Shown: one piece after another, positions 37,699 to 39,405 of the stretch
How the letters are laid out: every line of letters begins with the position of its first letter
How positions within the stretch are numbered: the first letter of the stretch is position 1
Assembly (NCBI GenBank): GCA_964347635.1
Contig: CAYFZI010000005.1
Coordinates: 4,613-68,612 of the forward strand
Direction of reading: 5' to 3'
Length of the DNA: 64,000 nt
From: an uncultured Dehalococcoidia bacterium
GTDB lineage: Bacteria > Chloroflexota > Dehalococcoidia > Bin125
Program-made: the position numbers and the translations under genes
Notes under the pieces: model-generated
The model's input: the letters and a program-made list of their open reading frames with translations, nothing else
What the model was told of the DNA's origin: nothing
Databases searched by the model: none

Positions 37699-39405
37699 AT
37701 GCCTCAATCCTGCGACGTAGTCGTGATCGGCGGTGGGCCGGGCGGCAGCGCCTGCGCGGCGCTGCTCGCCGACCAGGGCTTCAGCGTCGTGCTGCTCGAG
37801 CGCGCCGTGTTCCCGCGCGAGCACGTCGGCGAATCGCTGCTGCCGGCCAGCATTCCAGTGCTCGAACAACTCGGCGTGATGCCCGAGATCGAGGCGGCCG
37901 GCTTCGTCAGCAAGCGCGGCGCCACGCTGGTCTGGGGCACCGACCCCGAGCCCTGGAGCTGGTACTTCGCCGACGACCCCGGCCAGCGTCCGACCTCATT
38001 TCAGGTGCTGCGCTCCGAGTTCGACCAGATCTTGCTCAAGAACGCCGCGCAGCACGGCGTCGATGTGCGCGAAGCGCACCAGGTGCTCGAGGTTCTGTTT
38101 GAGCGCGGGCGCCCCAGCGGTGTGCGCTTCCTGCACGGGCGGGCGGAGGGGCGGATCGACGCGCGCTTCATCGTCGACGCCAGCGGCCAGGCGGCGATCC
38201 TCAGCCGCAAGCTGGGGCTGCAGCGCTGGGACTCGTTCTTCCAAAATCTCGCCGTCTACGGCTACTACCGCGGCGCCGCGCATCTCGCCCCGCCCAACGA
38301 CGGCAATATCTTCATCGAGTCCTACGAGCACGGCTGGCTCTGGAAGATCCCGCTGCACACCGGCCTGACCAGCGTCGGCGCGGTCGTCGACAAGCAGATC
38401 GGGCAGGACGGCCTGCGCGCTCAGGGCCCGATCGGCTTCCTCGAAGCGCAGATCGCGTGCGCGCCGCACATGCGCGAGCTGCTCGACGGCGCCGCGCTGG
38501 TCGGCGAGCCGCGCGTCGAGCGCGATTGGTCCTACACCTCATCGAGCTTCGCCGGCGACGGCTACGTCCTGGTCGGCGACGCCGCCTGCTTCGTCGATCC
38601 GCTCTTCTCCTCCGGCGTGCATCTGGCGCTGGGCAGCGCCAGCCTCGCGGCCGGCTATGTCGGCACAGCGCTCAACGCCCCCGCGGACCGCGCAGCCGCA
38701 GCGCAGGCCTATCAGGCCGCCTATGAAAAGCAGTACCGCTACTTCCACCTCACCGCTCAGCTCTTCTACGGCACCAACCGCAGCGCCGACTCCTACTTCT
38801 GGGAAGCCCGCCGCCTCTTCGCCGACCAGCTGGGCGGCGCTGCGCCGACGCCGCGGGAGGCCTTTGTGCGGATCGTCGGCGGCCAGCCGCCGCAAGGCTA
38901 CGAGCGGGCGGTGATCGAGCGGGGCGAACTGCCGGCCGAGATCGCCGACGAGGTGCGCCGCCGTGAACAGCGGAGCGAGCAGCGCCAGACCGCCGCCCAG
39001 ACGCTGGCCGCAGCGCCCGGCGCGCTGCTGCGCACCCGCCCCTCGCTGCCGCGCCGCGTGCGGCTCGAGCAGCAGCGCAATCTCTCCGGCGCGGGCTACA
39101 AGCAGGTCTTCAAGCTGGTCGTGCAGGGCAGCGGTGAATTTTCCGGCGGCGGCTACCCGGTCACCGCCGTGATCGCTGCCTGCATCGCCAAAATGGACGG
39201 CCGCACGGCGCTGGGCGACATCGTCGCCGCGGTGAACGCCGAGAACCGCCTGGACAACGCTGCCGGCTTGCAGCTGATCGTCGAGCGCGACCTGCCCGCG
39301 TTGATCGGCGCCGGTCTGATCGACGCGGCTCTGCAGCCGGTCGGCCGCAACGACCCCTGCCCCTGCGGATCGGGCAAGAAGTACAAGCGCTGCCACGGCC
39401 GCTGA
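37699..39405 (+). CDS. Flavin-dependent halogenase with C-terminal winged-helix (PqqD/RRE-like) domain and SEC-C motif
   Basis: GGGPGG FAD motif, catalytic-Lys context [8 protein letters not shown]..WG, WxWxIP (GWLWKIPL), [24 protein letters not shown]; ends [20 protein letters not shown]. Confidence 0.88.
   Translation: [568 protein letters not shown]

Follow-up and report, generated by a model that had tools for sequence, protein, structure and literature searches.

Our analysis concerns a 64,000-nucleotide stretch of DNA (hereafter the window, meaning the whole stretch analysed) from an uncultured Dehalococcoidia bacterium (assembly GCA_964347635.1, contig CAYFZI010000005.1), and within it a gene for a putative flavin-dependent halogenase that ends in a PqqD-like domain and a SecA-type (SEC-C) zinc finger. 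Judged by comparison with its relatives, the protein is an ATP-binding cassette (ABC) importer-linked paralogue of a Dehalococcoidia halogenase family that is otherwise paired with a luciferase-like monooxygenase (LLM). Gene order in the window runs from malate synthase, isocitrate lyase, an LLM, an M3 peptidase, a DUF1800/DUF1501 pair and an NHL-repeat beta-propeller to the halogenase, and then on to a family-5 solute-binding protein (SBP), two permeases, an acyl-CoA dehydrogenase, dehydrogenases, an Amidohydro_2 protein, a second family-5 SBP transporter and CoA-transferases. Related loci add a GFO oxidoreductase, an Amidohydro_2 protein and an HpcH aldolase. Coordinates of the halogenase gene, its parts and its nearest neighbours are collected in Table 1.

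Table 1. Features at the halogenase locus, in window coordinates
Feature	Position	Strand	Basis or remark
NHL-repeat beta-propeller, cytoplasmic	36466..37482	+	Syntenic in the clade, usually 2-3 genes from the halogenase
Shine-Dalgarno-like AAGGAG	37688..37693	+	Sequence
Halogenase gene	37699..39405	+	568 codons plus stop
Predicted catalytic core, flavin adenine dinucleotide (FAD)-binding/halogenase, CndH/CmlS 'variant B' type, residues 1-378	37699..38832	+	Pfam PF04820 and PF01494; CndH match
Lys72 codon	37912..37914	+	Aligned with the conserved Lys of CndH and CmlS
WLWKIP (W213-P218), WxWxIP motif	38335..38352	+	Translation; conservation
Helical linker, residues 380-438, with family-invariant GQPPxGYERAV	38836..39012	+	Alignment, models
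PqqD-homologous winged-helix (RRE-fold) domain, residues 439-545	39013..39333	+	hhalign, PF05402 in relatives, fold matches
SEC-C/SecA-type metal-binding domain, residues 548-568, ligands C554, C556, C565, H566	39340..39402	+	Pfam PF02810
Family-5 SBP, co-inherited with the halogenase clade	39567..41426	+	Profile searches
Two ABC permease genes, Opp/Dpp/Nik B and C type	41523..43396	+	No ATPase gene after

A halogenase core with two C-terminal modules

Inspection of the open reading frame (ORF; 37681/37699..39405, plus strand) found it intact. The ATG at 37699 is likely the start codon, since AAGGAG lies 5 nucleotides (nt) upstream and homologues begin at the equivalent Met. A preliminary description of this DNA, made from the sequence alone, had quoted a set of halogenase motifs, and all of them are present in the translation: GGGPGG (residues 11-16), FVSKRG with K72, GWLWKIP (212-218), a block at 293-310 and SYFW. 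Pfam supports this assignment, as Trp_halogenase (PF04820) matched residues 100-372 (E 7.6e-39; 134.3 bits against a cut-off of 21) and FAD_binding_3 (PF01494) was also matched; it was silent on residues ~380-549. The GxGxxG and WxWxIP motifs are hallmarks of flavin-dependent halogenases, and the aligned Lys is catalytic in solved halogenases. Across 113 homologues, GGGPGG, K72, W213, W215, I217 and P218 are invariant, as is most of the block at 293-310, in which C297 and S305 are conserved in at least 90%. K72 aligns with the Lys of CndH (IKRG) and of CmlS (KKPS), and D276 corresponds to a conserved Asp that CmlS, CndH and FasV share.

The nearest solved proteins by sequence are all halogenases, namely CndH (E 1.5e-94), FasV, CmlS, RadH, ChlB4 and PltA. 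In a structural search with the full-length model (predicted local distance difference test, pLDDT, 83.4), the core matched CndH (PDB 3e1t) at Z 46.6 with 40% identity and FasV at Z 47.6, in agreement with the CndH-type core that had been proposed. CndH is the best match to the core in both sequence and structure and reaches into the EAFVR linker, but the match ends at about residue 396, no PqqD-like domain is aligned and CndH has no SEC-C. The best NCBIfam model was that of CmlS (NF033113), which scored 298.8 bits against an equivalog cut-off of 900 and covered residues 5-374 only. Based on these comparisons, we infer that the window protein belongs to the 'variant B' flavin-dependent halogenases represented by CndH and CmlS and works as a two-component enzyme that uses FADH2. 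CndH comes from a polyketide synthase (PKS)/non-ribosomal peptide synthetase (NRPS) pathway. No NRPS, carrier-protein or flavin-reductase genes lie in the window, as had been stated before; four flavin reductase genes (PF01613) are found elsewhere in the genome. Profile searches of the whole genome found just two PP-binding matches and no condensation domain, which makes a carrier-tethered NRPS substrate unlikely.

One part of the linker behind the core was conspicuous in the alignment. In residues 394-404 (38878-38910), G395, G400, Y401, E402 and R403 are invariant in the 113 sequences and Q396 and P398 are conserved in at least 90%, yet the stretch is the least confident part of the model (residues 397-400 at pLDDT <50). 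This stretch may be a mobile, functionally important loop.

The tail of the protein, residues 380-568, was aligned with the same region of 74 relatives from the fetched loci. Its model (pLDDT 85.2; predicted template modelling score 0.75) consists of three linker helices, strands at 446-449, 454-463, 466-475 and 486-488, helices at 490-497, 505-516 and 521-537, a short strand and the zinc finger, which confirms the strands-then-helices order predicted earlier for about 39030-39325. When the 75 tails were compared with 22 Chloroflexota PqqD ORFs, hhalign gave a probability of 93.2% (E 3e-7; 76 columns in register), and PF05402 was matched in 31 of the 75 tail fragments, with a best E of 7.2e-4. 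The structural search aligned the domain with PqqD (5sxy) over 94 of 94 residues (Z 9.9; root mean square deviation, rmsd, 2.3) and with the lasso B1 proteins 6jx3 (Z 9.1) and TbiB1 (5v1u; Z 9.0). Enzymes bearing a RiPP recognition element (RRE; RiPP, ribosomally synthesised and post-translationally modified peptide) followed at Z 5-8: ThcOx, PbtF, CteB, TbtB, MadB, TigE, LynD, NisB, MccB and TglHI. Foldseek agreed with the structural search on this domain, and an ESM Atlas search with residues 439-568 gave no usable match. Because of the hhalign result, the PF05402 matches in relatives and the RRE-type fold matches, residues ~439-545 are a PqqD homologue with the RRE fold, which bears out the preliminary assignment.

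This domain shares the strands-then-three-helices fold of PqqD and the RREs (PF05402; 5sxy, 5v1u, 6jx3), but unlike them it is fused to a halogenase, has no precursor or RiPP enzymes nearby, and carries a long hairpin and an extra strand after helix 3, as in GdmN and NovN. The C-terminal domains of these two were the best structural matches (GdmN Z 12.2, NovN Z 11.1), and the unfiltered structural search ranked the C-terminal domain of Rv2067c (Z 11.5) above that of NovN. In GdmN the domain is described as serving dimerisation, with the beta-hairpins of the two subunits pairing with each other (PMC9633730). The window model has its own long hairpin at residues 454-463 and 466-475, and a homodimer prediction with two copies of residues 380-568 gave a score of 0.06 and a mark of 0.42, values that point neither towards nor away from GdmN-like dimerisation. 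An RRE fold by itself does not entail peptide binding, and the modelled architecture would suit a lid, a dimeriser and a peptide clamp alike.

The arrangement of core and tail resembles that of CmlS. The full-length model superposed on CmlS (3i3l) over 478 of 550 residues (model 5-547 on chain 4-550; Z 42.3, rmsd 5.2) and the superposition takes in the tail domain, whereas core-only structural matches align ~370 residues. As modelled, the protein has the CmlS/QhpG-type build, in which a catalytic core has a C-terminal winged-helix domain mounted over it. CmlS, the chloramphenicol halogenase, sits in an antibiotic gene cluster. It shares the variant-B core with the window protein (the Lys, WxWxIP and the Asp aligned with D276), and its winged helix corresponds to the tail domain in chain position and roughly in spatial position; it differs in sharing only 28% identity and in lacking SEC-C. 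QhpG is described as a CmlS-like flavoprotein that hydroxylates Trp in a protein and ends in a winged-helix domain; in the docking model of its authors, the protein substrate sits in a pocket between the two domains (PMC7876137). This peptidyl-Trp dihydroxylase (PDB 7ctq) differs from the window protein in being a monooxygenase and is a distant relative (E 1.8e-11).

The protein ends in a canonical SEC-C motif, as the preliminary description had read it. PF02810 matched residues 550-568 (E 2.6e-10; 40.4 bits against a cut-off of 20.4), with the ligand set CxCx8CH and basic residues, and the motif also matches the SecA zinc-finger peptides 1sx0 and 1tm6. Apart from this halogenase, SecA is the only protein of the genome with a SEC-C motif, and the halogenase tail matches that of SecA at all but one of 21 shared residues (D for Q). 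SecB was not found in the genome, which is 95% complete. The same CxCx8CH set with basic residues is found in the metal-binding domains (MBDs) of AscA/YecA, YchJ and SecA, the window MBD being attached to an enzyme. It follows the PqqD-like domain after only a few residues; in contrast, the SecA tail of E. coli is described as sitting on a long flexible linker (10.1101/613315). The MBD of SecA and AscA/YecA is reported to mediate binding to SecB and to 70S ribosomes, and the authors speculate that MBDs are a portable tag that brings functions to the Sec machinery (10.1101/2020.07.21.215244). By analogy with these MBDs, the halogenase tail might dock to the ribosome or to a membrane/Sec site. 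We found no paper that combines 'flavin-dependent halogenase' with 'SEC-C', and the main text of a structure-based RRE paper (PMC12710340) does not discuss a halogenase fusion, 'halogenase' occurring in its reference list only.

A paralogous clade linked to an ABC importer

Sequence searches returned more than 5000 relatives of the halogenase. From a genome scan, the best 80 loci of 588 confirmed relatives were taken, nearly all from Dehalococcoidia metagenome-assembled genomes (MAGs). An LLM cluster is present in 57 of these 80 loci, mostly just upstream and on the same strand, and the LLM is often preceded by an alpha/beta hydrolase, with a PF04199 cyclase coming after. An 89-sequence tree (FastTree, SH-like support only) places the window protein in a 23-member clade with 100% support, in which 17 members have SEC-C, six lack it and none has a monooxygenase directly upstream. 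Of the 66 proteins in the sister clade, 43 have the monooxygenase upstream. Members of the family occur in 58 of the 401 genomes of the class that were sampled. Orthologues of at least 70% identity are found in 15 genomes, all of the taxonomic family from which the window comes, and all 15 also carry a paralogue of ~50% identity; that of the window's genome lies on contig 12, in the order hydrolase-monooxygenase-halogenase. Taken together, these comparisons point to a separate paralogous clade which, at this identity and in the 401-genome sample, appears limited to one Dehalococcoidia family. The uncharacterised halogenase + LLM family shares the core and the PqqD-like tail with the window clade at ~50% identity. 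The window clade differs from it in having no LLM upstream, in having gained SEC-C and in being linked to an ABC importer. No paper was found on this SEC-C-tailed, importer-linked clade.

The importer link was counted with an iterated hidden Markov model run over all ORFs of the fetched loci, an SBP being scored when it lay within 1.5 kb of the halogenase. A family-5 SBP was found in 18 of the 22 loci whose halogenase is at least 57% identical to the window protein, versus 3 of 116 loci in the other clade; L115, one of these three, is really a SEC-C member just below the 57% threshold. Of the four loci scored as lacking an SBP, L038 and L125 are cut contigs, at L116 a transporter operon ends 9 nt before the halogenase, and only L059 truly has none within 8 kb. 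The genes come in different orders: halogenase-SBP-permeases as in the window, permeases-SBP-halogenase in L117-120, SBP-permeases-halogenase with the 9-nt gap in L116, and a convergent arrangement in L115. The adjacent SBPs belong to one subfamily, being 77-82% identical in close relatives and 35-38% identical over ~600 amino acids (aa) in L008/9 and L116-121. The window's second family-5 SBP could be aligned with the adjacent one only over a 37-aa signal peptide. The ABC importer is thus the one persistent neighbour of the clade, through at least four gene orders.

At its start (39567-39800), the adjacent SBP has a twin-arginine lipoprotein signal (..SRRISRRAML..LVGC), followed by a run of Asp and a Gln/Ala-rich linker of ~60 residues before the binding domain. 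Both family-5 transporters of the window (permeases at 41523-43396; second transporter at 52366-54203) comprise an SBP and two permeases and have no adjacent ATPase genes. We also considered the NHL-repeat protein as a tight partner of the halogenase and rejected it, because most relatives have two or three genes in between (a GFO oxidoreductase, an Amidohydro_2 protein and one unknown).

No conserved small ORF flanks the gene; those present in the two spacers of the window are 18-53 aa long and not conserved. The spacer between the halogenase and the SBP measures 161 nt and does not align across relatives. Spacers between LLM and halogenase range from 18 to 671 nt (median ~115, with ~20 nt in five loci), which leaves no room for a conserved peptide gene. 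RiPP, NRPS and PKS genes are absent from the window and from the related loci examined. A survey of the architecture and its neighbourhoods had been suggested in the preliminary description; the SEC-C clade proved real, the RiPP context was absent, and the ABC importer link, the strongest signal from the gene's surroundings, which had been missed, was found instead.

The SEC-C tail is probably ancestral to the clade, since basal members carry it, and it is near-invariant even where the rest of the protein is down to 58% identity. Several loci show what has become of it elsewhere. In P0062/P0059 and loci L116-L120, the zinc finger is replaced by a Cys-less, strongly basic tail (..TRAERRRFERQLQKK) aligned at the SEC-C position, which suggests that charge and not metal binding has been kept in this subclade. 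After the halogenase stop of L007 (9642-9700) lies an apparently intact SEC-C stretch (..CPCGPGKKYERCHGR) behind a premature stop, and a degenerate SEC-C relic is found at the same place in L003 (9648-9700). Either the zinc tail was lost recently in these two loci, or the remnants stem from errors in the assembly of long-read MAGs.

Possible substrates and modes of action

Based on these observations, we propose that the enzyme halogenates the cargo of the co-inherited importer, possibly a peptide, while its basic zinc tail docks on the ribosome or on a membrane surface. This reading is tentative, and we would put its probability at roughly 40%. One of the flavin reductases whose genes lie outside the window would supply reduced FAD. 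A FAD hydroperoxide would react with halide to give hypohalous acid, which Lys72 would capture behind the WxWxIP tunnel. A substrate lodged between the core and the PqqD-like domain would then be halogenated on an electron-rich aromatic ring (phenol, indole or pyrrole). From the linkage we infer that the substrate would most probably be cargo of the Opp/Dpp/Nik-type importer, perhaps a Tyr- or Trp-containing peptide, and would not be a locally encoded RiPP precursor. Docking would fall to the basic zinc tail, which would bind to an acidic surface of the ribosome or of a membrane/Sec site.

A number of observations weigh against this proposal. Concerning the importer, the closest relative (L059, 81% identity) has no family-5 SBP within 8 kb, the genome has 20 family-5 SBP matches, and many of the clade's loci are syntenic orthologues and so not independent. 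The SBP scores below every NCBIfam cut-off, and its cargo cannot be named by profile. Concerning the tail, the PqqD-like domain was inherited from a parent family that stands in a small-molecule oxidation context (LLM, alpha/beta hydrolase, cyclase), and its best structural matches, GdmN and NovN, are small-molecule carbamoyltransferases and not peptide binders. The window protein's own tail gave no PF05402 match at E up to 10 with residues 379-546, 440-546, 440-568 or 380-568, Pfam returning SEC-C only, and the tail profile found nothing significant among PDB sequences, where two PqqD entries came at E 0.85 and 1.2. Having decayed at least three times in the clade, the zinc tail is dispensable.

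Several of these points fit a plain small-molecule halogenase of the phenol or pyrrole type, which we consider somewhat unlikely. The tail domain would then be a lid or dimeriser, the transporter adjacency inherited synteny, and the zinc tail an accessory with no role in substrate choice. The preliminary description had named a CmlS-like structural lid with no peptide groove among the findings that would count against its reading, and the whole-chain superposition on CmlS, tail domain included, touches on it; taken alone, the tail domain matches the CmlS winged helix at only Z 3.7, versus Z 9.9 for PqqD. The GdmN and NovN matches (Z 11-12) and the hairpin through which the GdmN domain is described to dimerise (PMC9633730), and which the window model has too, also favour this explanation, as do the catabolic neighbourhood and the repeated loss of the zinc tail. 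It is further in its favour that the substrates of all close characterised relatives are, to our knowledge, small or carrier-bound aromatics. In contrast, it does not account well for an SBP adjacency kept through four gene orders and always with the same SBP subfamily, or for a SEC-C motif so conserved in proteins that have otherwise diverged. The preliminary description had instead favoured a stand-alone enzyme that halogenates ribosomal peptides or proteins in trans. On that reading, the PqqD-like domain would grip the peptide as an extra strand and the zinc finger would park the enzyme at the ribosome exit or Sec, where nascent or unfolded chains would be halogenated. The domains it relied on stand: the tail is homologous to PqqD with RRE-type fold matches, MBDs are reported to mediate ribosome and SecB binding in SecA and AscA (10.1101/2020.07.21.215244), and with no SecB found in the genome the ribosome remains as the known partner. 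QhpG, LodB and GoxB are described as fold relatives that modify Trp in proteins (PMC7876137), and NRPS condensation domains are absent from the genome. Its RiPP flavour fares less well: no precursor-like conserved small ORF was found, the neighbours are catabolic and transport genes, and no RiPP enzymes, protease or exporter were found in the window or related loci. The same fold is described as dimerising in GdmN (PMC9633730), the zinc tail has been lost repeatedly and the parent family has the same domain without any SEC-C; we therefore regard this explanation as unlikely.

Two further possibilities are less probable again. In one, which we think quite improbable, the zinc finger would recruit the halogenase to the ribosome exit or Sec while the PqqD-like domain grips unfolded segments, so that nascent chains or imported oligopeptides are halogenated without any precursor gene. 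If true, marine and sponge-associated Dehalococcoidia would have a system that halogenates proteins during or after their translation. In the other, which is highly improbable, the protein would be no halogenase but a flavin monooxygenase like QhpG or LodB, with an aromatic residue or compound as the target of hydroxylation. The NCBIfam models of QhpG (NF049967; 190.7 bits, below the cut-off of 240) and LodB (142 bits) do match, and QhpG is likewise described as keeping two tunnel Trp and a C-terminal winged-helix domain (PMC7876137). Against it stand the much closer match to CndH (E 1.5e-94, versus 1.8e-11 for QhpG 7ctq), the 298.8 bits of the CmlS model and the invariance of the Lys that aligns with that of halogenases.

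Flavin-dependent halogenases are normally taken as markers of natural-product clusters; here a well-supported clade is tied to an uptake system in a catabolic setting, and its PqqD-like domain and SecA zinc finger are modules that in other proteins make contacts with peptides, ribosomes or SecB. A functional importer link would point to halogenation of compounds that are taken up, possibly peptides. The origin of sponge organohalogens is an open question, and carriers of the clade include MAGs with sponge-metagenome-style bin names. The protein also adds a case to the SecA-like MBD as a portable docking tag, as speculated in 10.1101/2020.07.21.215244. The SBP and the halogenase together make a tractable pair for experiment.

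Neighbouring genes and a third halogenase

The NHL-repeat protein upstream of the halogenase has no signal peptide, and among NCBIfam models it comes closest to ScyF of scytonemin biosynthesis (152 bits, with the cut-off at 350). Directly upstream of its gene lies the DUF1800/DUF1501 pair (33748-36408), and the trio is syntenic in 10 related loci. Further upstream, malate synthase and isocitrate lyase of the glyoxylate shunt stand side by side at 20245-23223, with the window's LLM at 23362-24339. At 54228-56698, two long overlapping ORFs both match CoA-transferase family III; these are probably genes in tandem, or else a single gene with a frame problem.

A third halogenase of the genome is of the true tryptophan-halogenase type (G000 contig 19, locus L082:7175-8671, minus strand; 498 aa, PF04820 351 bits). 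Its gene adjoins a family-5 SBP gene and two permeases, with an amidohydrolase gene on the other flank. That two unrelated halogenases lie beside the same kind of importer may be chance, given the number of family-5 SBP matches in the genome, or may be a pattern.

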